Below, in pieces: positions 7,090-59,902 of a stretch of 63,298 nucleotides of DNA (within the stretch, counting starts at the first letter, position 1; each line of letters begins with the position of its first letter). This stretch comes from Azolla caroliniana (Eukaryota; Plantae; Polypodiophyta), in assembly GCA_043228905.1 (NCBI GenBank), contig JBHGNT010000162.1:1-63298 (forward strand), written 5' to 3'. The translations under genes and the position numbers were made by a program. Under the pieces are notes generated by a model. It did not search any database and was not told where the DNA came from. It was given only the letters and a program-made list of their open reading frames with translations.

Positions 7090-7091
7090 AA

Positions 7092-7546
7092 TATTATAGA
7101 TCATAGTACTAATGTAAGCTTAAGATAAGGATAATGAAAAGATAGATAGAAAGGAGAAAGAGAAAAAAGGGTGCCGATCCACCCGACCACCCCCGAGCGA
7201 AGGGATCGAGACGGACTCGAGCCTCGATCGGCGTCCCATACCACCGCCGTGGCGTCGAGTCGTACCTGGTGCTGGCGCGCTCGCTACAAGAGTTGACCCA
7301 CCACACGAGCAGAGTCTCGATGTAGTCAAAAAATCATCAAATGAGGGTAGCTAGGCCTCTTATTTATAGCGAAACCCAAGGCCCCCAGGCAAGTTCACAC
7401 TTGACCTAATGGGTTGTCTCAATCCCGAGGATTAAAAGTAATCCTCCCCTTCTTTACACTCTCCTTTAACCCTCACACTTATCCACGTGTATAGAATACT
7501 ACGGTAAATTCTTACCACGGGATATTATATGGTCATGCCCGTAACA
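7092..7546 (-). repeat. 5' LTR of the Gypsy element (455 bp)
   Basis: Direct repeat of 529-984, adjacent to the PBS. Contains TATAAATA (7361-7368, minus) and G-box CACGTG (7484-7489). Confidence 0.95.
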
Positions 7547-7804
7547 CCTTTCCTCTTCGGAGTCTCTCTTGTTGTCTCTGTAGCGGCGCCCCTCCTCAAG
7601 GAACCCCTCACGACGTCGCTCGCGCCTCTCGTCATCGCACTCCCCCTCTCGGCGTCGGTCGCGCCTCTCCTCGTCAATGTCTCCCTCACGACGTCGATCG
7701 CGTCGCTCCTCTTCACGGTCCCGCCCTACAGACCTAGCATTGGCCGCGGTACACGCGGCGAGCATGATCACGGCCATGAGGAATACGGAAGTAAGCTTTG
7801 CCAT
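7547..7804 (-). pseudogene. 2S albumin-like gene, copy 0: 5' part (86 codons) cut by the Gypsy 5' LTR
   Basis: Identical to the N-terminus of full copies up to DSEEER, then runs into LTR sequence ([15 protein letters not shown], stop at 7499). Confidence 0.9.
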
Positions 7805-8670
7805 TGCGATTGTCCTTATGATCCCGGTGCTTGTCTCCTAATGGATTGTATTGACATTGCTCCCTCCACCTTTAATATATACACATGGCCATGCAATCAG
7901 AGCACATGCATGTCACTCACCACTCCCATTACCATAACGTGTGTGTCCCTGCGTACAACTCTTGCCCAAGACCCATACCAACTAGTCCACCCTCCCACAC
8001 GTCTAGGCTAGTCCTAGGTGTCGTATTGTCACCAGACAATCTGGGCGCAACCTGTGGCGGGTACTCCTCCTCCTCCTCGCGCGAGAGCTTGTCGAGCAAC
8101 ATAACATTTATACATACGTAGGTAGATGTGCGCACTCGCGCGTGCGCGTAGGGGTGTGCGGGCACGTGCACATTAAACTAGCACGCGCTAGTGCCGAGAC
8201 ACTAAGCACGCGGAGGCTACTGCGGGACGAGTGGTGGCTCCCGAGTGTGCTACATCGATGAACGTAGATAGACCGGTGTCCGTACTCGCTCGTTCGGACG
8301 AGGGGTTGGTAACGACGACGACAAGGAAAGCTAACCGGACTACCACACTAGGAGTGTCCTATCGGGCAAGTGTGGAAGCAAGTTCACATTCGCCGCGTGT
8401 ACAAGTTGACCTTAGCCGTTGCCGTGGCGTGTGCGGTATGGGTGGGTGTTCCGCTTTGATGTTTTTTTTCCGTTTGGGTGGTTTGCGGTCCCTATAGGCA
8501 AATTCTATACGTTGGTGGTCGTGTCTACGTTCGTGTTGGAGGGACGTTGGTGCTCGTGTTTACGTTCGTGTGGGTGTAATGCGCGATTGGGGAGACGCAC
8601 TTGTTCGTAAACACTTACGAGAAATTAGAGAGAGACCACGAGAATAATTTGAACAAGGTTTATGTACTAT

Positions 8671-9456
8671 TTAGAAGCGACGAATACAAGCACGAGGGCG
8701 AAGATCGCACTGTTGGAGTAGGCGGGAGGCGGCGACGCCTAGAGCTCTTTCCTCGTCATCGGCCTTGAATTGGCGACGTTGTTGACGTTCGTCCTCTTGT
8801 CGTCGAGACATGCGGTGGCGGCGTTCGTCACCCTCTCGTCGCTCACGGCTGCTATCTCTCTCGCGCTCCTCGTCCTCTTCCTCCCAGCTACGGTGTTCCC
8901 TTGATTGTTGGCCATGGCGTCGGCCTTCATCATTGCGTCGTTCCTCCTCGTCAGCATACAAGGCATCACGTAGGCGATCGCATCGATCTTCGGCGGGGAT
9001 TCGTTCGACGTTCCTGCAGCACCGTTCCGAGGGTCTTGAGTATCGAGTGTTTTCGATCCATGGGGAGCGACGTCCTTGTTCACCTTCCTCTCTTTCGGAG
9101 CGCTCTTGTAGCTCTCGGATCCGCTTGTCGATGAAATCACCGCACTCTCGCCTCAGTTCCTCGTCACGTGGCTCATCGCGACCACGGCTACGACGTTCCC
9201 TTTCCTCTTCGGAGTCTCTCTTGTTGTCTCTGTAGCGGCGCCCCTCCTCAAGGAACCCCTCACGACGTCGCTCGCGCCTCTCGTCATCGCACTCCCCCTC
9301 TCGGCGTCGGTCGCGCCTCTCCTCGTCAATGTCTCCCTCACGACGTCGATCGCGTCGCTCCTCTTCACGGTCCCGCCCTACAGACCTAGCATTGGCCGCG
9401 GTACACGCGGCGAGCATGATCACGGCCATGAGGAATACGGAAGTAAGCTTTGCCAT
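8671..9456 (-). CDS. Arg/Glu-rich 2S albumin-like storage protein precursor, copy 1 (R112 allele)
   Basis: Signal peptide MAKLTSVFLMAVIMLAACTAANA. Prolamin-type Cys skeleton LRREC..FI / RCCRNVERIP..DRCDRL / ASRLLQQC..PRAC. 68 of 261 residues are Arg. Intronless, with an RY/ABRE promoter. Confidence 0.85.
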   Translation of the reverse strand: MAKLTSVFLMAVIMLAACTAANARSVGRDREEERRDRRREGDIDEERRDRRREGECDDERRERRREGFLEEGRRYRDNKRDSEEERERRSRGRDEPRDEELRRECGDFIDKRIRELQERSEREEGEQGRRSPWIENTRYSRPSERCCRNVERIPAEDRCDRLRDALYADEEERRNDEGRRHGQQSREHRSWEEEDEERERDSSRERREGDERRHRMSRRQEDERQQRRQFKADDEERALGVAASRLLQQCDLRPRACIRRF

Positions 9457-9522
9457 TGCGATTGTCCTTATGATCCCGGTGCTTGTCTCCTAATGGATTG
9501 TATTGACATTGCTCCCTCCACC

Positions 9523-9820
9523 TTTAATATATACACATGGCCATGCAATCAGAGCACATGCATGTCACTCACCACTCCCATTACCATAACGTGTGTGTCC
9601 CTGCGTACAACTCTTGCCCAAGACCCATACCAACTAGTCCACCCTCCCACACGTCTAGGCTAGTCCTAGGTGTCGTATTGTCACCAGACAATCTGGGCGC
9701 AACCTGTGGCGGGTACTCCTCCTCCTCCTCGCGCGAGAGCTTGTCGAGCAACATAACATTTATACATACGTAGGTAGATGTGCGCACTCGCGCGTGCGCG
9801 TAGGGGTGTGCGGGCACGTG
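9523..9820 (-). promoter_or_regulatory. Seed/spore-maturation-type promoter, repeated in every unit: TATA, RY elements, ACGT/ABRE and G-box
   Basis: TATATATTAAA (minus, 9523-9533) about 70 bp upstream of ATG. RY CATGCA 9542-9547 and CATGCATG 9557-9564. ACGTGT 9589-9594, ACACGT 9649-9654, CACGTG 9815-9820. Confidence 0.8.
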
Positions 9821-10322
9821 CACATTAAACTAGCACGCGCTAGTGCCGAGACACTAAGCACGCGGAGGCTACTGCGGGACGAGTGGTGGCTCCCGAGTGT
9901 GCTACATCGATGAACGTAGATAGACCGGTGTCCGTACTCGCTCGTTCGGACGAGGGGTTGGTAACGACGACGACAAGGAAAGCTAACCGGACTACCACAC
10001 TAGGAGTGTCCTATCGGGCAAGTGTGGAAGCAAGTTCACATTCGCCGCGTGTACAAGTTGACCTTAGCCGTTGCCGTGGCGTGTGCGGTATGGGTGGGTG
10101 TTCCGCTTTGATGTTTTTTTTCCGTTTGGGTGGTTTGCGGTCCCTATAGGCAAATTCTATACGTTGGTGGTCGTGTCTACGTTCGTGTTGGAGGGACGTT
10201 GGTGCTCGTGTTTACGTTCGTGTGGGTGTAATGCGCGATTGGGGAGACGCACTTGTTCGTAAACACTTACGAGAAATTAGAGAGAGACCACGAGAATAAT
10301 TTGAACAAGGTTTATGTACTAT

Positions 10323-11085
10323 TTAGAAGCGACGAATACAAGCACGAGGGCGAAGATCGCACTGTTGGAGTAGGCGGGAGGCGGCGACGCCTAGAGCTCT
10401 TTCCTCGTCATCGGCCTTGAATTGGCGACGTTGTTGACGTTCGTCCTCTTGTCGTCGAGACATGCGGTGGCGGCGTTCGTCACCCTCTCTGGCGCTCCTC
10501 GTCCTCTTCCTCCCAGCTACGGTGTTCCCTTGATTGTTGGCCATGGCGTCGGCCTTCATCATTGCGTCGTTCCTCCTCGTCAGCATACAAGGCATCACGT
10601 AGGCGATCGCATCGATCTTCGGCGGGGATTCGTTCGACGTTCCTGCAGCAGCGTTCCGAGGGTCTTGAGTATCGAGTGTTTTCGATCCATGGGGAGCGAC
10701 GTCCTTGTTCACCTTCCTCTCTTTCGGAGCGCTCTTGTAGCTCTCGGATCCGCTTGTCGATGAAATCACCGCACTCTCGCCTCAGTTCCTCGTCACGTGG
10801 CTCATCGCGACCACGGCTACGACGTTCCCTTTCCTCTTCGGAGTCTCTCTTGTTGTCTCTGTAGCGGCGCCCCTCCTCAAGGAACCCCTCACGACGTCGC
10901 TCGCGCCTCTCGTCATCGCACTCCCCCTCTCGGCGTCGGTCGCGCCTCTCCTCGTCAATGTCTCCCTCACGACGTCGATCGCGTCGCTCCTCTTCACGGT
11001 CCCGCCCTACAGACCTAGCATTGGCCGCGGTACACGCGGCGAGCATGATCACGGCCATGAGGAATACGGAAGTAAGCTTTGCCAT
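10323..11085 (-). pseudogene. 2S albumin-like gene, copy 2, frameshifted by a 23-bp deletion (201-aa product)
   Basis: Deletion between CTCTC microhomologies at about 10489. ORF 10480-11085 loses the last two Cys. Confidence 0.9.
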
Positions 11086-11951
11086 TGCGATTGTCCTTAT
11101 GATCCCGGTGCTTGTCTCCTAATGGATTGTATTGACATTGCTCCCTCCACCTTTAATATATACACATGGCCATGCAATCAGAGCACATGCATGTCACTCA
11201 CCACTCCCATTACCATAACGTGTGTGTCCCTGCGTACAACTCTTGCCCAAGACCCATACCAACTAGTCCACCCTCCCACACGTCTAGGCTAGTCCTAGGT
11301 GTCGTATTGTCACCAGACAATCTGGGCGCAACCTGTGGCGGGTACTCCTCCTCCTCCTCGCGCGAGAGCTTGTCGAGCAACATAACATTTATACATACGT
11401 AGGTAGATGTGCGCACTCGCGCGTGCGCGTAGGGGTGTGCGGGCACGTGCACATTAAACTAGCACGCGCTAGTGCCGAGACACTAAGCACGCGGAGGCTA
11501 CTGCGGGACGAGTGGTGGCTCCCGAGTGTGCTACATCGATGAACGTAGATAGACCGGTGTCCGTACTCGCTCGTTCGGACGAGGGGTTGGTAACGACGAC
11601 GACAAGGAAAGCTAACCGGACTACCACACTAGGAGTGTCCTATCGGGCAAGTGTGGAAGCAAGTTCACATTCGCCGCGTGTACAAGTTGACCTTAGCCGT
11701 TGCCGTGGCGTGTGCGGTATGGGTGGGTGTTCCGCTTTGATGTTTTTTTTCCGTTTGGGTGGTTTGCGGTCCCTATAGGGAAATTCTATACGTTGGTGGT
11801 CGTGTCTACGTTCGTGTTGGAGGGACGTTGGTGCTCGTGTTTACGTTCGTGTGGGTGTAATGCGCGATTGGGGAGACGCACTTGTTCGTAAACACTTACG
11901 AGAAATTAGAGAGAGACCACGAGAATAATTTGAACAAGGTTTATGTACTAT

Positions 11952-12714
11952 TTAGAAGCGACGAATACAAGCACGAGGGCGAAGATCGCACTGTTGGAGT
12001 AGGCGGGAGGCGGCGACGCCTAGAGCTCTTTCCTCGTCATCGGCCTTGAATTGGCGACGTTGTTGACGTTCGTCCTCTTGTCGTCGAGACATGCGGTGGC
12101 GGCGTTCGTCACCCTCTCTGGCGCTCCTCGTCCTCTTCCTCCCAGCTACGGTGTTCCCTTGATTGTTGGCCATGGCGTCGGCCTTCATCATTGCGTCGTT
12201 CCTCCTCGTCAGCATACAAGGCATCACGTAGGCGATCGCATCGATCTTCGGCGGGGATTCGTTCGACGTTCCTGCAGCAGCGTTCCGAGGGTCTTGAGTA
12301 TCGAGTGTTTTCGATCCATGGGGAGCGACGTCCTTGTTCACCTTCCTCTCTTTCGGAGCGCTCTTGTAGCTCTCGGATCCGCTTGTCGATGAAATCACCG
12401 CACTCTCGCCTCAGTTCCTCGTCACGTGGCTCATCGCGACCACGGCTACGACGTTCCCTTTCCTCTTCGGAGTCTCTCTTGTTGTCTCTGTAGCGGCGCC
12501 CCTCCTCAAGGAACCCCTCACGACGTCGCTCGCGCCTCTCGTCATCGCACTCCCCCTCTCGGCGTCGGTCGCGCCTCTCCTCGTCAATGTCTCCCTCACG
12601 ACGTCGATCGCGTCGCTCCTCTTCACGGTCCCGCCCTACAGACCTAGCATTGGCCGCGGTACACGCGGCGAGCATGATCACGGCCATGAGGAATACGGAA
12701 GTAAGCTTTGCCAT
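11952..12714 (-). pseudogene. 2S albumin-like gene, copy 3, same 23-bp deletion
   Basis: Identical lesion at about 12118; ORF 12109-12714 is 201 aa. Confidence 0.9.
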
Positions 12715-13580
12715 TGCGATTGTCCTTATGATCCCGGTGCTTGTCTCCTAATGGATTGTATTGACATTGCTCCCTCCACCTTTAATATATACACATGGCC
12801 ATGCAATCAGAGCACATGCATGTCACTCACCACTCCCATTACCATAACGTGTGTGTCCCTGCGTACAACTCTTGCCCAAGACCCATACCAACTAGTCCAC
12901 CCTCCCACACGTCTAGGCTAGTCCTAGGTGTCGTATTGTCACCAGACAATCTGGGCGCAACCTGTGGCGGGTACTCCTCCTCCTCCTCGCGCGAGAGCTT
13001 GTCGAGCAACATAACATTTATACATACGTAGGTAGATGTGCGCACTCGCGCGTGCGCGTAGGGGTGTGCGGGCACGTGCACATTAAACTAGCACGCGCTA
13101 GTGCCGAGACACTAAGCACGCGGAGGCTACTGCGGGACGAGTGGTGGCTCCCGAGTGTGCTACATCGATGAACGTAGATAGACCGGTGTCCGTACTCGCT
13201 CGTTCGGACGAGGGGTTGGTAACGACGACGACAAGGAAAGCTAACCGGACTACCACACTAGGAGTGTCCTATCGGGCAAGTGTGGAAGCAAGTTCACATT
13301 CGCCGCGTGTACAAGTTGACCTTAGCCGTTGCCGTGGCGTGTGCGGTATGGGTGGGTGTTCCGCTTTGATGTTTTTTTTCCGTTTGGGTGGTTTGCGGTC
13401 CCTATAGGCAAATTCTATACGTTGGTGGTCGTGTCTACGTTCGTGTTGGAGGGACGTTGGTGCTCGTGTTTACGTTCGTGTGGGTGTAATGCGCGATTGG
13501 GGAGACGCACTTGTTCGTAAACACTTACGAGAAATTAGAGAGAGACCACGAGAATAATTTGAACAAGGTTTATGTACTAT

Positions 13581-14366
13581 TTAGAAGCGACGAATACAAG
13601 CACGAGGGCGAAGATCGCACTGTTGGAGTAGGCGGGAGGCGGCGACGCCTAGAGCTCTTTCCTCGTCATCGGCCTTGAATTGGCGACGTTGTTGACGTTC
13701 GTCCTCTTGTCGTCGAGACATGCGGTGGCGGCGTTCGTCACCCTCTCGTCGCTCACGGCTGCTATCTCTCTCGCGCTCCTCGTCCTCTTCCTCCCAGCTA
13801 CGGTGTTCCCTTGATTGTTGGCCATGGCGTCGGCCTTCATCATTGCGTCGTTCCTCCTCGTCAGCATACAAGGCATCACGTAGGCGATCGCATCGATCTT
13901 CGGCGGGGATTCGTTCGACGTTCCTGCAGCACCGTTCCGAGGGTCTTGAGTATCGAGTGTTTTCGATCCATGGGGAGCGACGTCCTTGTTCACCTTCCTC
14001 TCTTTCGGAGCGCTCTTGTAGCTCTCGGATCTGCTTGTCGATGAAATCACCGCACTCTCGCCTCAGTTCCTCGTCACGTGGCTCATCGCGACCACGGCTA
14101 CGACGTTCCCTTTCCTCTTCGGAGTCTCTCTTGTTGTCTCTGTAGCGGCGCCCCTCCTCAAGGAACCCCTCACGACGTCGCTCGCGCCTCTCGTCATCGC
14201 ACTCCCCCTCTCGGCGTCGGTCGCGCCTCTCCTCGTCAATGTCTCCCTCACGACGTCGATCGCGTCGCTCCTCTTCACGGTCCCGCCCTACAGACCTAGC
14301 ATTGGCCGCGGTACACGCGGCGAGCATGATCACGGCCATGAGGAATACGGAAGTAAGCTTTGCCAT
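13581..14366 (-). CDS. 2S albumin-like storage protein, copy 4
   Basis: Intact 261-aa ORF, Q112 consensus type. Confidence 0.85.
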   Translation of the reverse strand: MAKLTSVFLMAVIMLAACTAANARSVGRDREEERRDRRREGDIDEERRDRRREGECDDERRERRREGFLEEGRRYRDNKRDSEEERERRSRGRDEPRDEELRRECGDFIDKQIRELQERSEREEGEQGRRSPWIENTRYSRPSERCCRNVERIPAEDRCDRLRDALYADEEERRNDEGRRHGQQSREHRSWEEEDEERERDSSRERREGDERRHRMSRRQEDERQQRRQFKADDEERALGVAASRLLQQCDLRPRACIRRF

Positions 14367-15232
14367 TGCGATTGTCCTTATGATCCCGGTGCTTGTCTCC
14401 TAATGGATTGTATTGACATTGCTCCCTCCACCTTTAATATATACACATGGCCATGCAATCAGAGCACATGCATGTCACTCACCACTCCCATTACCATAAC
14501 GTGTGTGTCCCTGCGTACAACTCTTGCCCAAGACCCATACCAACTAGTCCACCCTCCCACACGTCTAGGCTAGTCCTAGGTGTCGTATTGTCACCAGACA
14601 ATCTGGGCGCAACCTGTGGCGGGTACTCCTCCTCCTCCTCGCGCGAGAGCTTGTCGAGCAACATAACATTTATACATACGTAGGTAGATGTGCGCACTCG
14701 CGCGTGCGCGTAGGGGTGTGCGGGCACGTGCACATTAAACTAGCACGCGCTAGTGCCGAGACACTAAGCACGCGGAGGCTACTGCGGGACGAGTGGTGGC
14801 TCCCGAGTGTGCTACATCGATGAACGTAGATAGACCGGTGTCCGTACTCGCTCGTTCGGACGAGGGGTTGGTAACGACGACGACAAGGAAAGCTAACCGG
14901 ACTACCACACTAGGAGTGTCCTATCGGGCAAGTGTGGAAGCAAGTTCACATTCGCCGCGTGTACAAGTTGACCTTAGCCGTTGCCGTGGCGTGTGCGGTA
15001 TGGGTGGGTGTTCCGCTTTGATGTTTTTTTTCCGTTTGGGTGGTTTGCGGTCCCTATAGGCAAATTCTATACGTTGGTGGTCGTGTCTACGTTCGTGTTG
15101 GAGGGACGTTGGTGCTCGTGTTTACGTTCGTGTGGGTGTAATGCGCGATTGGGGAGACGCACTTGTTCGTAAACACTTACGAGAAATTAGAGAGAGACCA
15201 CGAGAATAATTTGAACAAGGTTTATGTACTAT

Positions 15233-46595: not shown

Positions 46596-47381
46596 TTAGA
46601 AGCGACGAATACAAGCACGAGGGCGAAGATCGCACTGTTGGAGTAGGCGGGAGGCGGCGACGCCTAGAGCTCTTTCCTCGTCATCGGCCTTGAATTGGCG
46701 ACGTTGTTGACGTTCGTCCTCTTGTCGTCGAGACATGCGGTGGCGGCGTTCGTCACCCTCTCGTCGCTCACGGCTGCTATCTCTCTCGCGCTCCTCGTCC
46801 TCTTCCTCCCAGCTACGGTGTTCCCTTGATTGTTGGCCATGGCGTCGGCCTTCATCATTGCGTCGTTCCTCCTCGTCAGCATACAAGGCATCACGTAGGC
46901 GATCGCATCGATCTTCGGCGGGGATTCGTTCGACGTTCCTGCAGCACCGTTCCGAGGGTCTTGAGTATCGAGTGTTTTCGATCCATGGGGAGCGACGTCC
47001 TTGTTCACCTTCCTCTCTTTCGGAGCGCTCTTGTAGCTCTCGGATCTGCTTGTCGATGAAATCACCGCACTCTCGCCTCAGTTCCTCGTCACGTGGCTCA
47101 TCGCGACCACGGCTACGACGTTCCCTTTCCTCTTCGGAGTCTCTCTTGTTGTCTCTGTAGCGGCGCCCCTCCTCAAGGAACCCCTCACGACGTCGCTCGC
47201 GCCTCTCGTCATCGCACTCCCCCTCTCGGCGTCGATCGCGCCTCTCCTCGTCAATGTCTCCCTCACGACGTCGATCGCGTCGCTCCTCTTCACGGTCCCG
47301 CCCTACAGACCTAGCATTGGCCGCGGTACACGCGGCGAGCATGATCACGGCCATGAGGAATACGGAAGTAAGCTTTGCCAT
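46596..47381 (-). CDS. 2S albumin-like storage protein, copy 24
   Basis: Intact 261-aa ORF; first copy with the synonymous G>A at 47235. Confidence 0.85.
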   Translation of the reverse strand: MAKLTSVFLMAVIMLAACTAANARSVGRDREEERRDRRREGDIDEERRDRRREGECDDERRERRREGFLEEGRRYRDNKRDSEEERERRSRGRDEPRDEELRRECGDFIDKQIRELQERSEREEGEQGRRSPWIENTRYSRPSERCCRNVERIPAEDRCDRLRDALYADEEERRNDEGRRHGQQSREHRSWEEEDEERERDSSRERREGDERRHRMSRRQEDERQQRRQFKADDEERALGVAASRLLQQCDLRPRACIRRF

Positions 47382-48244
47382 TGCGATTGTCCTTATGATC
47401 CCGGTGCTTGTCTCCTAATGGATTGTATTGACATTGCTCCCTCCACCTTTAATATATACACATGGCCATGCAATCAGAGCACATGCATGTCACTCACCAC
47501 TCCCATTACCATAACGTGTGTGTCCCTGCGTACAACTCTTGCCCAAGACCCATACCAACTAGTCCACCCTCCCACACGTCTAGGCTAGTCCTAGGTGTCG
47601 TATTGTCACCAGACAATCTGGGCGCAACCTGTGGCGGGTACTCCTCCTCCTCCTCGCGCGAGAGCTTGTCGAGCAACATAACATTTATACATACGTAGGT
47701 AGATGTGCGCACTCGCGCGTGCGCGTAGGGGTGTGCGGGCACGTGCACATTAAACTAGCACGCGCTAGTGCCGAGACACTAAGCACGCGGAGGCTACTGC
47801 GGGACGAGTGGTGGCTCCCGAGTGTGCTACATCGATGAACGTAGATAGACCGGTGTCCGTACTCGCTCGTTCGGACGAGGGGTTGGTAACGACGACGACA
47901 AGGAAAGCTAACCGGACTACCACACTAGGAGTGTCCTATCGGGCAAGTGTGGAAGCAAGTTCACATTCGCCGCGTGTACAAGTTGACCTTAGCCGTTGCC
48001 GTGGCGTGTGCGGTATGGGTGTTCTGCTTTGATATTTTTTTTCCGTTTGGGTGGTTTGCGGTCCCCTATAGGCAAATTCTATACGTTGGTGGTCGTGTTT
48101 ACGTTCGTGTTGGAGGGACGTTGGTGCTCGTGTTTACGTTCGTGTGGGTGTAATGCGCGATTGGGGAGACGCACTTGTTCGTAAACACTTACGAGAAATT
48201 AGAGAGAGACCACGAGAATAATTTGAACAAGGTTTATGTACTAT

Positions 48245-49030
48245 TTAGAAGCGACGAATACAAGCACGAGGGCGAAGATCGCACTGTTGGAGTAGGCGGG
48301 AGGCGGCGACGCCTAGAGCTCTTTCCTCGTCATCGGCCTTGAATTGGCGACGTTGTTGACGTTCGTCCTCTTGTCGTCGAGACATGCGGTGGCGGCGTTC
48401 GTCACCCTCTCGTCGCTCACGGCTGCTATCTCTCTCGCGCTCCTCGTCCTCTTCCTCCCAGCTACGGTGTTCCCTTGATTGTTGGCCATGGCGTCGGCCT
48501 TCATCATTGCGTCGTTCCTCCTCGTCAGCATACAAGGCATCACGTAGGCGATCGCATCGATCTTCGGCGGGGATTCGTTCGACGTTCCTGCAGCACCGTT
48601 CCGAGGGTCTTGAGTATCGAGTGTTTTCGATCCATGGGGAGCGACGTCCTTGTTCACCTTCCTCTCTTTCGGAGCGCTCTTGTAGCTCTCGGATCTGCTT
48701 GTCGATGAAATCACCGCACTCTCGCCTCAGTTCCTCGTCACGTGGCTCATCGCGACCACGGCTACGACGTTCCCTTTCCTCTTCGGAGTCTCTCTTGTTG
48801 TCTCTGTAGCGGCGCCCCTCCTCAAGGAACCCCTCACGACGTCGCTCGCGCCTCTCGTCATCGCACTCCCCCTCTCGGCGTCGATCGCGCCTCTCCTCGT
48901 CAATGTCTCCCTCACGACGTCGATCGCGTCGCTCCTCTTCACGGTCCCGCCCTACAGACCTAGCATTGGCCGCGGTACACGCGGCGAGCATGATCACGGC
49001 CATGAGGAATACGGAAGTAAGCTTTGCCAT
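48245..49030 (-). CDS. 2S albumin-like storage protein, copy 25
   Basis: Intact 261-aa ORF, 1649-bp subfamily. Confidence 0.85.
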   Translation of the reverse strand: MAKLTSVFLMAVIMLAACTAANARSVGRDREEERRDRRREGDIDEERRDRRREGECDDERRERRREGFLEEGRRYRDNKRDSEEERERRSRGRDEPRDEELRRECGDFIDKQIRELQERSEREEGEQGRRSPWIENTRYSRPSERCCRNVERIPAEDRCDRLRDALYADEEERRNDEGRRHGQQSREHRSWEEEDEERERDSSRERREGDERRHRMSRRQEDERQQRRQFKADDEERALGVAASRLLQQCDLRPRACIRRF

Positions 49031-49893
49031 TGCGATTGTCCTTATGATCCCGGTGCTTGTCTCCTAATGGATTGTATTGACATTGCTCCCTCCACCTTTA
49101 ATATATACACATGGCCATGCAATCAGAGCACATGCATGTCACTCACCACTCCCATTACCATAACGTGTGTGTCCCTGCGTACAACTCTTGCCCAAGACCC
49201 ATACCAACTAGTCCACCCTCCCACACGTCTAGGCTAGTCCTAGGTGTCGTATTGTCACCAGACAATCTGGGCGCAACCTGTGGCGGGTACTCCTCCTCCT
49301 CCTCGCGCGAGAGCTTGTCGAGCAACATAACATTTATACATACGTAGGTAGATGTGCGCACTCGCGCGTGCGCGTAGGGGTGTGCGGGCACGTGCACATT
49401 AAACTAGCACGCGCTAGTGCCGAGACACTAAGCACGCGGAGGCTACTGCGGGACGAGTGGTGGCTCCCGAGTGTGCTACATCGATGAACGTAGATAGACC
49501 GGTGTCCGTACTCGCTCGTTCGGACGAGGGGTTGGTAACGACGACGACAAGGAAAGCTAACCGGACTACCACACTAGGAGTGTCCTATCGGGCAAGTGTG
49601 GAAGCAAGTTCACATTCGCCGCGTGTACAAGTTGACCTTAGCCGTTGCCGTGGCGTGTGCGGTATGGGTGTTCTGCTTTGATATTTTTTTTCCGTTTGGG
49701 TGGTTTGCGGTCCCCTATAGGCAAATTCTATACGTTGGTGGTCGTGTTTACGTTCGTGTTGGAGGGACGTTGGTGCTCGTGTTTACGTTCGTGTGGGTGT
49801 AATGCGCGATTGGGGAGACGCACTTGTTCGTAAACACTTACGAGAAATTAGAGAGAGACCACGAGAATAATTTGAACAAGGTTTATGTACTAT

Positions 49894-50679
49894 TTAGAAG
49901 CGACGAATACAAGCACGAGGGCGAAGATCGCACTGTTGGAGTAGGCGGGAGGCGGCGACGCCTAGAGCTCTTTCCTCGTCATCGGCCTTGAATTGGCGAC
50001 GTTGTTGACGTTCGTCCTCTTGTCGTCGAGACATGCGGTGGCGGCGTTCGTCACCCTCTCGTCGCTCACGGCTGCTATCTCTCTCGCGCTCCTCGTCCTC
50101 TTCCTCCCAGCTACGGTGTTCCCTTGATTGTTGGCCATGGCGTCGGCCTTCATCATTGCGTCGTTCCTCCTCGTCAGCATACAAGGCATCACGTAGGCGA
50201 TCGCATCGATCTTCGGCGGGGATTCGTTCGACGTTCCTGCAGCACCGTTCCGAGGGTCTTGAGTATCGAGTGTTTTCGATCCATGGGGAGCGACGTCCTT
50301 GTTCACCTTCCTCTCTTTCGGAGCGCTCTTGTAGCTCTCGGATCTGCTTGTCGATGAAATCACCGCACTCTCGCCTCAGTTCCTCGTCACGTGGCTCATC
50401 GCGACCACGGCTACGACGTTCCCTTTCCTCTTCGGAGTCTCTCTTGTTGTCTCTGTAGCGGCGCCCCTCCTCAAGGAACCCCTCACGACGTCGCTCGCGC
50501 CTCTCGTCATCGCACTCCCCCTCTCGGCGTCGATCGCGCCTCTCCTCGTCAATGTCTCCCTCACGACGTCGATCGCGTCGCTCCTCTTCACGGTCCCGCC
50601 CTACAGACCTAGCATTGGCCGCGGTACACGCGGCGAGCATGATCACGGCCATGAGGAATACGGAAGTAAGCTTTGCCAT
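49894..50679 (-). CDS. 2S albumin-like storage protein, copy 26
   Basis: Intact 261-aa ORF, 1649-bp subfamily. Confidence 0.85.
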   Translation of the reverse strand: MAKLTSVFLMAVIMLAACTAANARSVGRDREEERRDRRREGDIDEERRDRRREGECDDERRERRREGFLEEGRRYRDNKRDSEEERERRSRGRDEPRDEELRRECGDFIDKQIRELQERSEREEGEQGRRSPWIENTRYSRPSERCCRNVERIPAEDRCDRLRDALYADEEERRNDEGRRHGQQSREHRSWEEEDEERERDSSRERREGDERRHRMSRRQEDERQQRRQFKADDEERALGVAASRLLQQCDLRPRACIRRF

Positions 50680-51542
50680 TGCGATTGTCCTTATGATCCC
50701 GGTGCTTGTCTCCTAATGGATTGTATTGACATTGCTCCCTCCACCTTTAATATATACACATGGCCATGCAATCAGAGCACATGCATGTCACTCACCACTC
50801 CCATTACCATAACGTGTGTGTCCCTGCGTACAACTCTTGCCCAAGACCCATACCAACTAGTCCACCCTCCCACACGTCTAGGCTAGTCCTAGGTGTCGTA
50901 TTGTCACCAGACAATCTGGGCGCAACCTGTGGCGGGTACTCCTCCTCCTCCTCGCGCGAGAGCTTGTCGAGCAACATAACATTTATACATACGTAGGTAG
51001 ATGTGCGCACTCGCGCGTGCGCGTAGGGGTGTGCGGGCACGTGCACATTAAACTAGCACGCGCTAGTGCCGAGACACTAAGCACGCGGAGGCTACTGCGG
51101 GACGAGTGGTGGCTCCCGAGTGTGCTACATCGATGAACGTAGATAGACCGGTGTCCGTACTCGCTCGTTCGGACGAGGGGTTGGTAACGACGACGACAAG
51201 GAAAGCTAACCGGACTACCACACTAGGAGTGTCCTATCGGGCAAGTGTGGAAGCAAGTTCACATTCGCCGCGTGTACAAGTTGACCTTAGCCGTTGCCGT
51301 GGCGTGTGCGGTATGGGTGTTCTGCTTTGATATTTTTTTTCCGTTTGGGTGGTTTGCGGTCCCCTATAGGCAAATTCTATACGTTGGTGGTCGTGTTTAC
51401 GTTCGTGTTGGAGGGACGTTGGTGCTCGTGTTTACGTTCGTGTGGGTGTAATGCGCGATTGGGGAGACGCACTTGTTCGTAAACACTTACGAGAAATTAG
51501 AGAGAGACCACGAGAATAATTTGAACAAGGTTTATGTACTAT

Positions 51543-52328
51543 TTAGAAGCGACGAATACAAGCACGAGGGCGAAGATCGCACTGTTGGAGTAGGCGGGAG
51601 GCGGCGACGCCTAGAGCTCTTTCCTCGTCATCGGCCTTGAATTGGCGACGTTGTTGACGTTCGTCCTCTTGTCGTCGAGACATGCGGTGGCGGCGTTCGT
51701 CACCCTCTCGTCGCTCACGGCTGCTATCTCTCTCGCGCTCCTCGTCCTCTTCCTCCCAGCTACGGTGTTCCCTTGATTGTTGGCCATGGCGTCGGCCTTC
51801 ATCATTGCGTCGTTCCTCCTCGTCAGCATACAAGGCATCACGTAGGCGATCGCATCGATCTTCGGCGGGGATTCGTTCGACGTTCCTGCAGCACCGTTCC
51901 GAGGGTCTTGAGTATCGAGTGTTTTCGATCCATGGGGAGCGACGTCCTTGTTCACCTTCCTCTCTTTCGGAGCGCTCTTGTAGCTCTCGGATCTGCTTGT
52001 CGATGAAATCACCGCACTCTCGCCTCAGTTCCTCGTCACGTGGCTCATCGCGACCACGGCTACGACGTTCCCTTTCCTCTTCGGAGTCTCTCTTGTTGTC
52101 TCTGTAGCGGCGCCCCTCCTCAAGGAACCCCTCACGACGTCGCTCGCGCCTCTCGTCATCGCACTCCCCCTCTCGGCGTCGATCGCGCCTCTCCTCGTCA
52201 ATGTCTCCCTCACGACGTCGATCGCGTCGCTCCTCTTCACGGTCCCGCCCTACAGACCTAGCATTGGCCGCGGTACACGCGGCGAGCATGATCACGGCCA
52301 TGAGGAATACGGAAGTAAGCTTTGCCAT
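51543..52328 (-). CDS. 2S albumin-like storage protein, copy 27
   Basis: Intact 261-aa ORF, 1649-bp subfamily. Confidence 0.85.
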   Translation of the reverse strand: MAKLTSVFLMAVIMLAACTAANARSVGRDREEERRDRRREGDIDEERRDRRREGECDDERRERRREGFLEEGRRYRDNKRDSEEERERRSRGRDEPRDEELRRECGDFIDKQIRELQERSEREEGEQGRRSPWIENTRYSRPSERCCRNVERIPAEDRCDRLRDALYADEEERRNDEGRRHGQQSREHRSWEEEDEERERDSSRERREGDERRHRMSRRQEDERQQRRQFKADDEERALGVAASRLLQQCDLRPRACIRRF

Positions 52329-53191
52329 TGCGATTGTCCTTATGATCCCGGTGCTTGTCTCCTAATGGATTGTATTGACATTGCTCCCTCCACCTTTAAT
52401 ATATACACATGGCCATGCAATCAGAGCACATGCATGTCACTCACCACTCCCATTACCATAACGTGTGTGTCCCTGCGTACAACTCTTGCCCAAGACCCAT
52501 ACCAACTAGTCCACCCTCCCACACGTCTAGGCTAGTCCTAGGTGTCGTATTGTCACCAGACAATCTGGGCGCAACCTGTGGCGGGTACTCCTCCTCCTCC
52601 TCGCGCGAGAGCTTGTCGAGCAACATAACATTTATACATACGTAGGTAGATGTGCGCACTCGCGCGTGCGCGTAGGGGTGTGCGGGCACGTGCACATTAA
52701 ACTAGCACGCGCTAGTGCCGAGACACTAAGCACGCGGAGGCTACTGCGGGACGAGTGGTGGCTCCCGAGTGTGCTACATCGATGAACGTAGATAGACCGG
52801 TGTCCGTACTCGCTCGTTCGGACGAGGGGTTGGTAACGACGACGACAAGGAAAGCTAACCGGACTACCACACTAGGAGTGTCCTATCGGGCAAGTGTGGA
52901 AGCAAGTTCACATTCGCCGCGTGTACAAGTTGACCTTAGCCGTTGCCGTGGCGTGTGCGGTATGGGTGTTCTGCTTTGATATTTTTTTTCCGTTTGGGTG
53001 GTTTGCGGTCCCCTATAGGCAAATTCTATACGTTGGTGGTCGTGTTTACGTTCGTGTTGGAGGGACGTTGGTGCTCGTGTTTACGTTCGTGTGGGTGTAA
53101 TGCGCGATTGGGGAGACGCACTTGTTCGTAAACACTTACGAGAAATTAGAGAGAGACCACGAGAATAATTTGAACAAGGTTTATGTACTAT

Positions 53192-53977
53192 TTAGAAGCG
53201 ACGAATACAAGCACGAGGGCGAAGATCGCACTGTTGGAGTAGGCGGGAGGCGGCGACGCCTAGAGCTCTTTCCTCGTCATCGGCCTTGAATTGGCGACGT
53301 TGTTGACGTTCGTCCTCTTGTCGTCGAGACATGCGGTGGCGGCGTTCGTCACCCTCTCGTCGCTCACGGCTGCTATCTCTCTCGCGCTCCTCGTCCTCTT
53401 CCTCCCAGCTACGGTGTTCCCTTGATTGTTGGCCATGGCGTCGGCCTTCATCATTGCGTCGTTCCTCCTCGTCAGCATACAAGGCATCACGTAGGCGATC
53501 GCATCGATCTTCGGCGGGGATTCGTTCGACGTTCCTGCAGCACCGTTCCGAGGGTCTTGAGTATCGAGTGTTTTCGATCCATGGGGAGCGACGTCCTTGT
53601 TCACCTTCCTCTCTTTCGGAGCGCTCTTGTAGCTCTCGGATCTGCTTGTCGATGAAATCACCGCACTCTCGCCTCAGTTCCTCGTCACGTGGCTCATCGC
53701 GACCACGGCTACGACGTTCCCTTTCCTCTTCGGAGTCTCTCTTGTTGTCTCTGTAGCGGCGCCCCTCCTCAAGGAACCCCTCACGACGTCGCTCGCGCCT
53801 CTCGTCATCGCACTCCCCCTCTCGGCGTCGATCGCGCCTCTCCTCGTCAATGTCTCCCTCACGACGTCGATCGCGTCGCTCCTCTTCACGGTCCCGCCCT
53901 ACAGACCTAGCATTGGCCGCGGTACACGCGGCGAGCATGATCACGGCCATGAGGAATACGGAAGTAAGCTTTGCCAT
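53192..53977 (-). CDS. 2S albumin-like storage protein, copy 28
   Basis: Intact 261-aa ORF, 1649-bp subfamily. Confidence 0.85.
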   Translation of the reverse strand: MAKLTSVFLMAVIMLAACTAANARSVGRDREEERRDRRREGDIDEERRDRRREGECDDERRERRREGFLEEGRRYRDNKRDSEEERERRSRGRDEPRDEELRRECGDFIDKQIRELQERSEREEGEQGRRSPWIENTRYSRPSERCCRNVERIPAEDRCDRLRDALYADEEERRNDEGRRHGQQSREHRSWEEEDEERERDSSRERREGDERRHRMSRRQEDERQQRRQFKADDEERALGVAASRLLQQCDLRPRACIRRF

Positions 53978-54840
53978 TGCGATTGTCCTTATGATCCCGG
54001 TGCTTGTCTCCTAATGGATTGTATTGACATTGCTCCCTCCACCTTTAATATATACACATGGCCATGCAATCAGAGCACATGCATGTCACTCACCACTCCC
54101 ATTACCATAACGTGTGTGTCCCTGCGTACAACTCTTGCCCAAGACCCATACCAACTAGTCCACCCTCCCACACGTCTAGGCTAGTCCTAGGTGTCGTATT
54201 GTCACCAGACAATCTGGGCGCAACCTGTGGCGGGTACTCCTCCTCCTCCTCGCGCGAGAGCTTGTCGAGCAACATAACATTTATACATACGTAGGTAGAT
54301 GTGCGCACTCGCGCGTGCGCGTAGGGGTGTGCGGGCACGTGCACATTAAACTAGCACGCGCTAGTGCCGAGACACTAAGCACGCGGAGGCTACTGCGGGA
54401 CGAGTGGTGGCTCCCGAGTGTGCTACATCGATGAACGTAGATAGACCGGTGTCCGTACTCGCTCGTTCGGACGAGGGGTTGGTAACGACGACGACAAGGA
54501 AAGCTAACCGGACTACCACACTAGGAGTGTCCTATCGGGCAAGTGTGGAAGCAAGTTCACATTCGCCGCGTGTACAAGTTGACCTTAGCCGTTGCCGTGG
54601 CGTGTGCGGTATGGGTGTTCTGCTTTGATATTTTTTTTCCGTTTGGGTGGTTTGCGGTCCCCTATAGGCAAATTCTATACGTTGGTGGTCGTGTTTACGT
54701 TCGTGTTGGAGGGACGTTGGTGCTCGTGTTTACGTTCGTGTGGGTGTAATGCGCGATTGGGGAGACGCACTTGTTCGTAAACACTTACGAGAAATTAGAG
54801 AGAGACCACGAGAATAATTTGAACAAGGTTTATGTACTAT

Positions 54841-55626
54841 TTAGAAGCGACGAATACAAGCACGAGGGCGAAGATCGCACTGTTGGAGTAGGCGGGAGGC
54901 GGCGACGCCTAGAGCTCTTTCCTCGTCATCGGCCTTGAATTGGCGACGTTGTTGACGTTCGTCCTCTTGTCGTCGAGACATGCGGTGGCGGCGTTCGTCA
55001 CCCTCTCGTCGCTCACGGCTGCTATCTCTCTCGCGCTCCTCGTCCTCTTCCTCCCAGCTACGGTGTTCCCTTGATTGTTGGCCATGGCGTCGGCCTTCAT
55101 CATTGCGTCGTTCCTCCTCGTCAGCATACAAGGCATCACGTAGGCGATCGCATCGATCTTCGGCGGGGATTCGTTCGACGTTCCTGCAGCACCGTTCCGA
55201 GGGTCTTGAGTATCGAGTGTTTTCGATCCATGGGGAGCGACGTCCTTGTTCACCTTCCTCTCTTTCGGAGCGCTCTTGTAGCTCTCGGATCTGCTTGTCG
55301 ATGAAATCACCGCACTCTCGCCTCAGTTCCTCGTCACGTGGCTCATCGCGACCACGGCTACGACGTTCCCTTTCCTCTTCGGAGTCTCTCTTGTTGTCTC
55401 TGTAGCGGCGCCCCTCCTCAAGGAACCCCTCACGACGTCGCTCGCGCCTCTCGTCATCGCACTCCCCCTCTCGGCGTCGATCGCGCCTCTCCTCGTCAAT
55501 GTCTCCCTCACGACGTCGATCGCGTCGCTCCTCTTCACGGTCCCGCCCTACAGACCTAGCATTGGCCGCGGTACACGCGGCGAGCATGATCACGGCCATG
55601 AGGAATACGGAAGTAAGCTTTGCCAT
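54841..55626 (-). CDS. 2S albumin-like storage protein, copy 29
   Basis: Intact 261-aa ORF, 1649-bp subfamily. Confidence 0.85.
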   Translation of the reverse strand: MAKLTSVFLMAVIMLAACTAANARSVGRDREEERRDRRREGDIDEERRDRRREGECDDERRERRREGFLEEGRRYRDNKRDSEEERERRSRGRDEPRDEELRRECGDFIDKQIRELQERSEREEGEQGRRSPWIENTRYSRPSERCCRNVERIPAEDRCDRLRDALYADEEERRNDEGRRHGQQSREHRSWEEEDEERERDSSRERREGDERRHRMSRRQEDERQQRRQFKADDEERALGVAASRLLQQCDLRPRACIRRF

Positions 55627-56489
55627 TGCGATTGTCCTTATGATCCCGGTGCTTGTCTCCTAATGGATTGTATTGACATTGCTCCCTCCACCTTTAATAT
55701 ATACACATGGCCATGCAATCAGAGCACATGCATGTCACTCACCACTCCCATTACCATAACGTGTGTGTCCCTGCGTACAACTCTTGCCCAAGACCCATAC
55801 CAACTAGTCCACCCTCCCACACGTCTAGGCTAGTCCTAGGTGTCGTATTGTCACCAGACAATCTGGGCGCAACCTGTGGCGGGTACTCCTCCTCCTCCTC
55901 GCGCGAGAGCTTGTCGAGCAACATAACATTTATACATACGTAGGTAGATGTGCGCACTCGCGCGTGCGCGTAGGGGTGTGCGGGCACGTGCACATTAAAC
56001 TAGCACGCGCTAGTGCCGAGACACTAAGCACGCGGAGGCTACTGCGGGACGAGTGGTGGCTCCCGAGTGTGCTACATCGATGAACGTAGATAGACCGGTG
56101 TCCGTACTCGCTCGTTCGGACGAGGGGTTGGTAACGACGACGACAAGGAAAGCTAACCGGACTACCACACTAGGAGTGTCCTATCGGGCAAGTGTGGAAG
56201 CAAGTTCACATTCGCCGCGTGTACAAGTTGACCTTAGCCGTTGCCGTGGCGTGTGCGGTATGGGTGTTCTGCTTTGATATTTTTTTTCCGTTTGGGTGGT
56301 TTGCGGTCCCCTATAGGCAAATTCTATACGTTGGTGGTCGTGTTTACGTTCGTGTTGGAGGGACGTTGGTGCTCGTGTTTACGTTCGTGTGGGTGTAATG
56401 CGCGATTGGGGAGACGCACTTGTTCGTAAACACTTACGAGAAATTAGAGAGAGACCACGAGAATAATTTGAACAAGGTTTATGTACTAT

Positions 56490-57275
56490 TTAGAAGCGAC
56501 GAATACAAGCACGAGGGCGAAGATCGCACTGTTGGAGTAGGCGGGAGGCGGCGACGCCTAGAGCTCTTTCCTCGTCATCGGCCTTGAATTGGCGACGTTG
56601 TTGACGTTCGTCCTCTTGTCGTCGAGACATGCGGTGGCGGCGTTCGTCACCCTCTCGTCGCTCACGGCTGCTATCTCTCTCGCGCTCCTCGTCCTCTTCC
56701 TCCCAGCTACGGTGTTCCCTTGATTGTTGGCCATGGCGTCGGCCTTCATCATTGCGTCGTTCCTCCTCGTCAGCATACAAGGCATCACGTAGGCGATCGC
56801 ATCGATCTTCGGCGGGGATTCGTTCGACGTTCCTGCAGCACCGTTCCGAGGGTCTTGAGTATCGAGTGTTTTCGATCCATGGGGAGCGACGTCCTTGTTC
56901 ACCTTCCTCTCTTTCGGAGCGCTCTTGTAGCTCTCGGATCTGCTTGTCGATGAAATCACCGCACTCTCGCCTCAGTTCCTCGTCACGTGGCTCATCGCGA
57001 CCACGGCTACGACGTTCCCTTTCCTCTTCGGAGTCTCTCTTGTTGTCTCTGTAGCGGCGCCCCTCCTCAAGGAACCCCTCACGACGTCGCTCGCGCCTCT
57101 CGTCATCGCACTCCCCCTCTCGGCGTCGATCGCGCCTCTCCTCGTCAATGTCTCCCTCACGACGTCGATCGCGTCGCTCCTCTTCACGGTCCCGCCCTAC
57201 AGACCTAGCATTGGCCGCGGTACACGCGGCGAGCATGATCACGGCCATGAGGAATACGGAAGTAAGCTTTGCCAT
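56490..57275 (-). CDS. 2S albumin-like storage protein, copy 30
   Basis: Intact 261-aa ORF, 1649-bp subfamily. Confidence 0.85.
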   Translation of the reverse strand: MAKLTSVFLMAVIMLAACTAANARSVGRDREEERRDRRREGDIDEERRDRRREGECDDERRERRREGFLEEGRRYRDNKRDSEEERERRSRGRDEPRDEELRRECGDFIDKQIRELQERSEREEGEQGRRSPWIENTRYSRPSERCCRNVERIPAEDRCDRLRDALYADEEERRNDEGRRHGQQSREHRSWEEEDEERERDSSRERREGDERRHRMSRRQEDERQQRRQFKADDEERALGVAASRLLQQCDLRPRACIRRF

Positions 57276-58139
57276 TGCGATTGTCCTTATGATCCCGGTG
57301 CTTGTCTCCTAATGGATTGTATTGACATTGCTCCCTCCACCTTTAATATATACACATGGCCATGCAATCAGAGCACATGCATGTCACTCACCACTCCCAT
57401 TACCATAACGTGTGTGTCCCTGCGTACAACTCTTGCCCAAGACCCATACCAACTAGTCCACCCTCCCACACGTCTAGGCTAGTCCTAGGTGTCGTATTGT
57501 CACCAGACAATCTGGGCGCAACCTGTGGCGGGTACTCCTCCTCCTCCTCGCGCGAGAGCTTGTCGAGCAACATAACATTTATACATACGTAGGTAGATGT
57601 GCGCACTCGCGCGTGCGCGTAGGGGTGTGCGGGCACGTGCACATTAAACTAGCACGCGCTAGTGCCGAGACACTAAGCACGCGGAGGCTACTGCGGGACG
57701 AGTGGTGGCTCCCGAGTGTGCTACATCGATGAACGTAGATAGACCGGTGTCCGTACTCGCTCGTTCGGACGAGGGGTTGGTAACGACGACGACAAGGAAA
57801 GCTAACCGGACTACCACACTAGGAGTGTCCTATCGGGCAAGTGTGGAAGCAAGTTCACATTCGCCGCGTGTACAAGTTGACCTTAGCCGTTGCCGTGGCG
57901 TGTGCGGTATGGGTGTTCTGCTTTGATATTTTTTTTCCGTTTGGGTGGTTTGCGGTCCCCTATAGGCAAATTCTATACGTTGGTGGTCGTGTTTACGTTC
58001 GTGTTGGAGGGACGTTGGTGCTCGTGTTTACGTTCGTGTGGGTGTAATGCGCGATTGGGGAGACGCACTTTGTTCGTAAACACTTACGAGAAATTAGAGA
58101 GAGACCACGAGAATAATTTGAACAAGGTTTATGTACTAT

Positions 58140-58925
58140 TTAGAAGCGACGAATACAAGCACGAGGGCGAAGATCGCACTGTTGGAGTAGGCGGGAGGCG
58201 GCGACGCCTAGAGCTCTTTCCTCGTCATCGGCCTTGAATTGGCGACGTTGTTGACGTTCGTCCTCTTGTCGTCGAGACATGCGGTGGCGGCGTTCGTCAC
58301 CCTCTCGTCGCTCACGGCTGCTATCTCTCTCGCGCTCCTCGTCCTCTTCCTCCCAGCTACGGTGTTCCCTTGATTGTTGGCCATGGCGTCGGCCTTCATC
58401 ATTGCGTCGTTCCTCCTCGTCAGCATACAAGGCATCACGTAGGCGATCGCATCGATCTTCGGCGGGGATTCGTTCGACGTTCCTGCAGCACCGTTCCGAG
58501 GGTCTTGAGTATCGAGTGTTTTCGATCCATGGGGAGCGACGTCCTTGTTCACCTTCCTCTCTTTCGGAGCGCTCTTGTAGCTCTCGGATCTGCTTGTCGA
58601 TGAAATCACCGCACTCTCGCCTCAGTTCCTCGTCACGTGGCTCATCGCGACCACGGCTACGACGTTCCCTTTCCTCTTCGGAGTCTCTCTTGTTGTCTCT
58701 GTAGCGGCGCCCCTCCTCAAGGAACCCCTCACGACGTCGCTCGCGCCTCTCGTCATCGCACTCCCCCTCTCGGCGTCGATCGCGCCTCTCCTCGTCAATG
58801 TCTCCCTCACGACGTCGATCGCGTCGCTCCTCTTCACGGTCCCGCCCTACAGACCTAGCATTGGCCGCGGTACACGCGGCGAGCATGATCACGGCCATGA
58901 GGAATACGGAAGTAAGCTTTGCCAT
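58140..58925 (-). CDS. 2S albumin-like storage protein, copy 31
   Basis: Intact 261-aa ORF, 1650-bp variant (extra T in the 3' flank). Confidence 0.85.
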   Translation of the reverse strand: MAKLTSVFLMAVIMLAACTAANARSVGRDREEERRDRRREGDIDEERRDRRREGECDDERRERRREGFLEEGRRYRDNKRDSEEERERRSRGRDEPRDEELRRECGDFIDKQIRELQERSEREEGEQGRRSPWIENTRYSRPSERCCRNVERIPAEDRCDRLRDALYADEEERRNDEGRRHGQQSREHRSWEEEDEERERDSSRERREGDERRHRMSRRQEDERQQRRQFKADDEERALGVAASRLLQQCDLRPRACIRRF

Positions 58926-59789
58926 TGCGATTGTCCTTATGATCCCGGTGCTTGTCTCCTAATGGATTGTATTGACATTGCTCCCTCCACCTTTAATATA
59001 TACACATGGCCATGCAATCAGAGCACATGCATGTCACTCACCACTCCCATTACCATAACGTGTGTGTCCCTGCGTACAACTCTTGCCCAAGACCCATACC
59101 AACTAGTCCACCCTCCCACACGTCTAGGCTAGTCCTAGGTGTCGTATTGTCACCAGACAATCTGGGCGCAACCTGTGGCGGGTACTCCTCCTCCTCCTCG
59201 CGCGAGAGCTTGTCGAGCAACATAACATTTATACATACGTAGGTAGATGTGCGCACTCGCGCGTGCGCGTAGGGGTGTGCGGGCACGTGCACATTAAACT
59301 AGCACGCGCTAGTGCCGAGACACTAAGCACGCGGAGGCTACTGCGGGACGAGTGGTGGCTCCCGAGTGTGCTACATCGATGAACGTAGATAGACCGGTGT
59401 CCGTACTCGCTCGTTCGGACGAGGGGTTGGTAACGACGACGACAAGGAAAGCTAACCGGACTACCACACTAGGAGTGTCCTATCGGGCAAGTGTGGAAGC
59501 AAGTTCACATTCGCCGCATGTACAAGTTGACCTTAGCCGTTGCCGTGGCGTGTGCGGTATGGGTGTTCTGCTTTGATATTTTTTTTCCGTTTGGGTGGTT
59601 TGCGGTCCCCTATAGGCAAATTCTATACGTTGGTGGTCGTGTTTACGTTCGTGTTGGAGGGACGTTGGTGCTCGTGTTTACGTTCGTGTGGGTGTAATGC
59701 GCGATTGGGGAGACGCACTTTGTTCGTAAACACTTACGAGAAATTAGAGAGAGACCACGAGAATAATTTGAACAAGGTTTATGTACTAT

Positions 59790-59902
59790 TTAGAAGCGAC
59801 GAATACAAGCACGAGGGCGAAGATCGCACTGTTGGAGTAGGCGGGAGGCGGCGACGCCTAGAGCTCTTTCCTCGTCATCGGCCTTGAATTGGCGACGTTG
59901 TT
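59790..59902 (-). pseudogene. 2S albumin-like gene, copy 32: 3' end only, interrupted by a Copia insertion
   Basis: Matches the last ~37 codons (QQRRQFKADDEE...CIRRF stop); homology ends at 59902 where the LTR TGTTGGGA starts. Confidence 0.9.

Follow-up and report, generated by a model that had tools for sequence, protein, structure and literature searches.

This study concerns a tandem array of an intronless gene for a nitrogen-rich, storage-type protein in contig C162 of a fern genome assembly (523,246,259 bases in 1,503 contigs). The window analysed is the whole of this contig (positions 1-63298), and the array, called family A here, was followed from there through the assembly and into public sequencing runs. 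We will argue that the gene, together with a diverged paralogue, is arrayed on the scale of ribosomal DNA (rDNA), and that the arrays probably supply a spore nitrogen store.

Layout of the family A array

The array occupies positions 7547..59902 on the reverse strand. It consists of 31 full head-to-tail units of 1627-1652 bp, delimited by 32 HindIII sites between 7793 and 58914, and of two coding fragments cut by transposable elements (TEs) at its ends. The initial annotation had reported at least 33 near-identical head-to-tail copies over this interval, which agrees with our tally, and their identity turns out to be higher than could be seen at that stage. The 31 aligned units form 18 haplotypes with a mean substitution distance of 0.21% (maximum 0.49%), and no substitution at all separates 45 of the 465 unit pairs. 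An ATG is present in 32 copies, of which 29 encode a protein of 261 amino acids (aa), two are frameshifted and one is interrupted by a Ty3 element. Twenty-six of the 29 intact proteins are identical, with Q112R, S203I and E104Q each seen once; this recount reproduces the earlier figures for intact reading frames and identical products.

As a representative copy we take the coding sequence (CDS) at 13581..14366 (reverse strand), a single intronless open reading frame (ORF) of 261 aa with a signal-like N-terminus, 13-aa repeats and a six-cysteine core. It adjoins, at 14367..15232 on the same strand, an 866-bp spacer of 52% GC that holds the promoter of one copy and the 3' flank of the next. The two frameshifted copies (10480..11085 and 12109..12714, both on the reverse strand) adjoin each other and carry the identical 23-bp deletion, which reduces the product of the former to 201 aa; the duplication postdates the mutation. 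A block of seven units of 1649/1650 bp (47370..58913, reverse strand) is marked by linked spacer variants held in common, and the same unit type also fills contig C113. Two other candidate features were dismissed, namely a 141-aa antisense ORF, which merely reflects the charged CDS, and a linked 5S, tRNA or snRNA gene, for which no Rfam or ARAGORN match was obtained in one family A and one family B locus.

Both ends of the array had been described as TE insertions into a CDS. This holds for the right end, where a Ty1/copia retrotransposon on the forward strand (59903..63298) cuts the 33rd copy, leaving its 3' end as a fragment at 59790..59902 (reverse strand). The element runs off the contig end and has an in-frame stop after its gag-protease part; the start of its long terminal repeat (LTR, 59903-60160) contains about four 55-bp tandem repeats. 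The left end is less simple. There, the 5' part of a copy (7547..7804, reverse strand) is cut by a Ty3/gypsy chromodomain retrotransposon on the reverse strand (529..7546; LTRs at 529-984 and 7092-7546), whose flanks show no target-site duplication and beyond which lies a piece of array spacer (1..528, forward strand, unit positions 291-813). The element joins array DNA of opposite orientations, and neither junction recurs in the assembly. On this sequence pattern, the left end would be either an inversion between two copies of the Ty3 element or a local misjoin. The two LTRs are identical at 451 of 455 aligned bases and end in TG...TA, not TG...CA.

Further array contigs are likewise interrupted by 7-kb retrotransposons, with 5-bp target duplications for those in C113 and C238. 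One of them, at C113:68741-75757, belongs to the same Ty3 family and lies within a CDS; it is a very recent insertion, since its LTRs are identical and flanked by a 5-bp target duplication. Array-specific targeting is not needed to explain such insertions, the LTR end of this family matching 2,260 times genome-wide.

The encoded protein and its promoter

The protein has a hydrophobic N-terminus of 24 aa that is signal-like by inspection and is conserved between families A and B, with a ratio of non-synonymous to synonymous divergence (dN/dS) of 0.14. It contains Arg/Glu/Asp-rich 13-aa repeats. The mature part has an extreme Arg content of 28.3%, beside 20.7% Glu and 10.5% Asp, corresponding to 1.96 nitrogen atoms per residue and 21.9% nitrogen by mass.

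The PF00234 profile matches the family A protein at the cut-off itself (21.7 bits for the whole protein against a cut-off of 21.7; 23.1 bits for the core), and falls below it for family B (19.9 bits) and for a sister gene on contig C3 (17.1 bits), which is described below. The core cysteines are C105, C146, C147, C159, C250 and C257, and the identical six are found in all three proteins. Compared with the eight-cysteine motif, the first Cys is missing and the CxC position reads D-R-C; the two absent cysteines are presumably partners of each other in canonical 2S albumins. The canonical arrangement is given as C..C../..CC..CxC..C..C in the accessible text of PMC4366206. With six of the eight motif cysteines, the predicted protein is best called a 2S-albumin-like member of the prolamin superfamily and not a canonical 2S albumin, which qualifies the original assignment.

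The structure model of the core has a pLDDT (predicted local distance difference test score) of 67.9 and a pTM (predicted template modelling score) of 0.54. Its best fold match with VIA is the Moringa 2S albumin (5dom), with Z 6.6 and a root-mean-square deviation of 3.5 over 80 aligned residues, and each of the first eight rows is a fold of the prolamin superfamily. The same superfamily accounts for all eight Foldseek rows for the core, but at E values of 3.6-9.3. The full-length model is of low quality (pTM 0.25), and Foldseek found no match for it. Protein searches returned only two unnamed relatives among 7,119 candidates, two among 7,987 in the profile search and two in the representative library; atlas matches are all below 0.9 and serve as leads only. 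A Conotoxin profile match over the signal-like peptide was dismissed as weak (E 0.06, below cut-off).

Upstream of the representative copy, a proximal promoter block at 14438..14474 (reverse strand) contains a TATA box (-77), an RY-type TGCATG (-91) and CATGCATG (-108). This block belongs to the sole upstream stretch that is conserved between families A and B, in which the TATA box is accompanied by two RY elements. RY elements are the sites of ABI3/LEC2 in seed storage promoters. In ferns, the accessible text of PMC5379062 reports expression of LAFL genes in mature sporangia. Taken together, the 21.9% nitrogen, the purifying selection between the families (see below) and the conserved RY/TATA block support the nitrogen-storage-type gene that the initial annotation had proposed.

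Copy number, homogenisation and age of the arrays

Exact family A 24-mers occur 436 times (coding) and 432 times (promoter) in the assembly, with 0 matches for the reversed controls; places are available for the 100 matches listed in each case. Besides C162, contigs C113, C117 and C238 were read whole and C109 over its first 30 kb. All are further pieces of family A arrays and bring the number of copies read to ~110 of the 436; 99 of the 110 fetched copies are full length. The expectation that the array extends beyond the window is thus borne out in the sense that it continues on other contigs, the window itself being already a complete one.

Family B was found through high-depth contigs of public runs. 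Two 24-mers from it match 168 and 171 times, its units measure 2161-2200 bp, its proteins have 345 or 358 aa and are 74% identical to family A, and 46 of the 60 array copies are full length. A degenerate C-terminal motif common to the families has 615 matches in the assembly. Together, the A and B arrays amount to ~1.09 Mb, or 0.21% of the assembly, and small, unplaced contigs carry almost all of the copies.

The chromosomal surroundings are marked by decayed copies. Those of family B occupy C12 from 12.98 Mb as far as position 13,114,464, where a scaffold gap of 100 N probably marks the place of a B array. On C3, family A is represented by decayed copies at 10.38-10.41 Mb, and ~90 kb from them (L054:8410-9180; C3, about 10.293 Mb) we find the intact sister gene, which is intronless, encodes a His-rich protein of 256 aa that is 69% identical to the unnamed protein P0002, and has RY, G-box and TATA elements upstream. 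It looks single-copy, with one match among the motif matches listed, and offers a natural non-amplified control. The array spacers are richer in GC than its flanks (52% for 14367-15232 and 48% for L047 vs 38% and 32%), and their observed/expected CpG ratios are higher (1.12 and 0.96 vs 0.59 and 0.15). In a check for GC-biased conversion, the spacers were GC-rich and the fourfold coding sites were not (0.47, 0.52 and 0.51). Extrachromosomal circles are disfavoured as the form of the arrays: the B relics reach the gap on C12, and a circular contig in run X1 is what a collapsed tandem repeat is expected to give. Dispersed, decayed orphan copies occur away from the arrays at C20:1.379 Mb, C16:14.247 Mb, C3:8.078 Mb and C21:10.388 Mb, the one on C21 being of B type and those of family A 80-88% identical. 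The assembly also contains two LEAFY loci (C1:640737 and C21:595135). Among named matches, a LEAFY exon of this genome stands nearest to Ceratopteris (84%), followed by Sceptridium, Angiopteris and Equisetum, as expected of a fern, likely a leptosporangiate one.

The family A unit is held wholly or partly by 20 public runs, 18 of which hold at least half its words. Four of the 24 listed runs were examined, X1, X15, X18 and X19, the first three of which come from three studies. In X1 the whole unit appears as one 1,679-base contig at a depth of 702.6, against 2.6-3.2 for contigs of diverged paralogues. The corresponding values are 4,337-5,595 vs 8.5-21.1 in X15 and 7,420-7,437 vs 7.2-18.9 in X18, which bears another organism label; the head-to-tail joint is seen in X1 and X18. 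The ratios of ~200-1,000 take the paralogue contigs as single-copy, and depth is not equal to copy number. Read depth had been named beforehand as the check on copy number, and its outcome, hundreds-fold in three runs, gives the order of magnitude only. It nevertheless means that the array did not arise as an artefact of assembly. In all three runs (X1, X15 and X18) the units differ from the assembly at array-fixed sites and hence are not simply those of the assembly, and each fetched array contig carries private variants. The B-to-A depth ratio is ~0.8 in X1 and ~0.4 in X18, compared with 0.39 in the assembly, an apparent difference that may reflect a change in copy number among accessions or species. 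Run X19, with a third organism label and guessed to be RNA, has contigs ~80-95% like the CDS and none over the spacer; it was not counted. No RNA run is among the listed holders of the unit, which says nothing on expression.

The distribution of variants indicates how such uniformity is maintained. Adjacent units of C162 are closer to each other than random pairs (1.37 vs 4.35 events; 0 of 10,000 permutations), and neighbour similarity is found also in C113 (2 of 10,000). In C238:14647-27930 one unit differs from the next in an alternating pattern of variants, which points to (higher-order) duplications of two units at a time, and one unit there has a 66-bp local duplication. On average, 101 A units (two C117 edge units excluded) lie 0.31% apart and 50 B units 0.39%, compared with a dS of 0.89 between the families. 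Five spacer sites (14509, 14618, 14680, 14687 and 14744) are fixed in 101 of 101 core A units. At the sites that they cover, relics on C3, C20 and C117 have the other state, with the exceptions of one that is core-like at 14744 and one showing a third base at 14618. The relic state is also the one that is mostly carried by the main units of X1, X15 and X18. The derived variants have thus swept the sampled arrays of this lineage, likely by unequal crossing-over and gene conversion. Among the 11 listed full-depth substitutions of X1, one lies in the CDS (p 0.009; in the worst case 2 of 12, p 0.03). These patterns of neighbour-shared and lineage-fixed variants, together with the high word depth in independent runs, uphold the concerted evolution of rDNA type that had been proposed.

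The amplification had also been taken as recent or ongoing. Families A and B differ by dN 0.17 and dS 0.89 over 254 codons (ratio 0.19). Since two families at this distance are both arrayed, and a run of another organism label holds the array, the better reading is that the arrays are old and under ongoing homogenisation.

Function, rival explanations and known systems

In our preferred reading, with a probability of about 0.68, the arrays are expressed and serve gene dosage: LAFL factors would switch them on to build up a nitrogen store in the spore, and homogenisation of the rDNA type would keep their copies alike. Every unit comprises an entire gene cassette. Factors of the ABI3/LEC2 (LAFL) type would act on the RY-RY-TATA block in maturing sporangia, and the product would enter the secretory pathway and be stored in vacuoles, from which its ~2 nitrogen atoms per residue would be released at germination. 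The second paralogue (B) is arrayed separately in ~170 copies, and the third, sister gene looks single-copy. Copies at the array edges are no longer homogenised, receive TE insertions and degenerate. The arrays may have formed under selection for the number of templates available during a brief filling period. A more specific version is that the fern meets a template bottleneck in the single-celled megaspore, with its one haploid nucleus, by holding two storage genes in ~600-copy rDNA-like arrays that are mostly active in one burst. Seeds, by comparison, fill via many, often polyploid, nuclei and a handful of storage genes. This version we offer tentatively, as it takes the host to be heterosporous, a trait that would fit the small genome and ~22 chromosome-size scaffolds and is known from water ferns.

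Several points weigh against the dosage reading. Only ~110 of the 436 A copies were read, and with no gap within 240 kb around the C3 relics, family A is unplaced on the chromosomes. Because the depth baseline is assumed, only 'hundreds' of copies can be claimed. The best Z of 6.6 is under 8, the level trusted by itself, and the Foldseek search for the core gave no match at E <= 0.001. Similarity between neighbours fails to reach significance in C238 (815 of 10,000 permutations), and so does within-array selection, where 10 synonymous events stand against 19 non-synonymous or stop events (p 0.10; dN/dS ~0.56). Finally, C>T changes in the array are enriched at CG (13/316) and CHG (3/81) compared with CHH (9/521), and the relic copies also lean to CG/CHG changes, a bias that suggests methylation and perhaps silencing.

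The C>T bias and the non-significant within-array selection, along with the TE insertions and inversion inside the arrays, would suit a gene-bearing satellite: real arrays, mostly methylated and silent, spread by neutral unequal exchange or drive, with a few copies or the intact C3 sister gene, which has its own RY, G-box and TATA elements, supplying the protein. We consider this unlikely, as ORF, cysteines and RY/TATA block are kept in both arrays across dS 0.89 at a ratio of 0.19, the array-wide swept variants lie mostly outside the CDS, ~90% of the fetched A copies are intact, and two paralogues were arrayed separately. Less probable by far is that the true number is small and was inflated by assembly over-expansion or haplotig redundancy. 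The concentration of copies on small unplaced contigs, the assumed depth baseline and the 336 of 436 matches outside those listed speak for it, and a two-fold inflation by haplotigs among the unlisted contigs is possible. A small number is nevertheless hard to reconcile with the hundreds-fold depth of three runs, each from a different study and with units that differ from those of the assembly, with variants that are contig-private and neighbour-shared, and with insertions inside the arrays that carry 5-bp target duplications. Scarcely more credible is that the arrays are expressed for a protein acting mainly in defence or structure, as an antifungal or inhibitor, in the spore wall or massula matrix, or in desiccation protection. 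The closest solved relatives do include amylase/trypsin inhibitors and antifungal Moringa 2S albumins, and the long charged low-complexity helices and the non-canonical motif would agree with such a role. The extreme Arg content and the A/B variation in repeat length fit a nitrogen depot better, however, the promoter is of maturation type, and 2S storage proteins are reported from fern spores in the accessible text of PMC4973428, which cites matteuccin (2.2S) of the ostrich fern.

The dosage reading can be set beside known systems. Matteuccin resembles the array protein, by description only, in being a 2S-albumin-related spore storage protein of a fern; we know of no gene array of hundreds of copies for it. 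Seed 2S albumins (Moringa 5dom, napin, Ara h 6, mabinlin) share with the fern proteins PF00234, a predicted helical bundle, a signal-like peptide, intronless polar-rich genes and an RY promoter. Unlike them, the fern proteins have six of the eight cysteines, 261-358 aa and long Arg/Glu inserts. The ~600 fern copies contrast with 0-7 2S albumin genes in gymnosperms in a genome survey that, in its accessible text, places such genes in no plant lineage before seed plants (PMC10006428). A divergent six-cysteine member should be useful for tracing 2S albumin origins, and the arrays have a bearing on the relationship between the provisioning of spores and the maturation programme of seeds.

The literature searched (subscription journals were outside its coverage) contained no description of these arrays. 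They lie on unplaced contigs, and repeat masking would hide them. Unidirectional tandem blocks of single-exon genes in the dinoflagellate Polarella (PMC7245778) and a vicilin-like tandem array in Cycas (PMC9023351) are both proposed to raise output; these concern other lineages or gene families, and near-identity over hundreds of units is not stated in the accessible texts. Closer are the cereal clusters of prolamins and alpha-globulins, where a storage gene of the prolamin superfamily has likewise been expanded in tandem, and its dosage raised, through duplication and unequal crossover, with 14-23 copies of maize z1C1 and 23-36 of teff delta-prolamins according to the accessible part of PMC4943188. 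Compared with these figures, the fern arrays have 10-30 times the copies, a fixed period of 1.65 or 2.2 kb, a mean divergence of 0.3-0.4% and spacers that are homogenised too; printed storage-protein clusters reach tens of copies, and the fern assembly holds ~600.

A large array of cysteine-rich-peptide genes has reportedly appeared in near-complete Arabidopsis assemblies and may be a precedent; our literature search did not find it. Arrays of rDNA and of replication histones consist of gene plus spacer repeated head-to-tail in hundreds of copies, with lineage-fixed variants, edge relics and retrotransposon insertions. The fern arrays share all of these features and provide a protein-coding system in which sweeps across an array, the decay of its edges and selection acting on copy number can be measured. 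Their unit is different, being a developmentally timed, storage-type gene of RNA polymerase II. It is the tandem expansion of a storage gene at the scale and uniformity of rDNA, twice in one fern, that sets this system apart.

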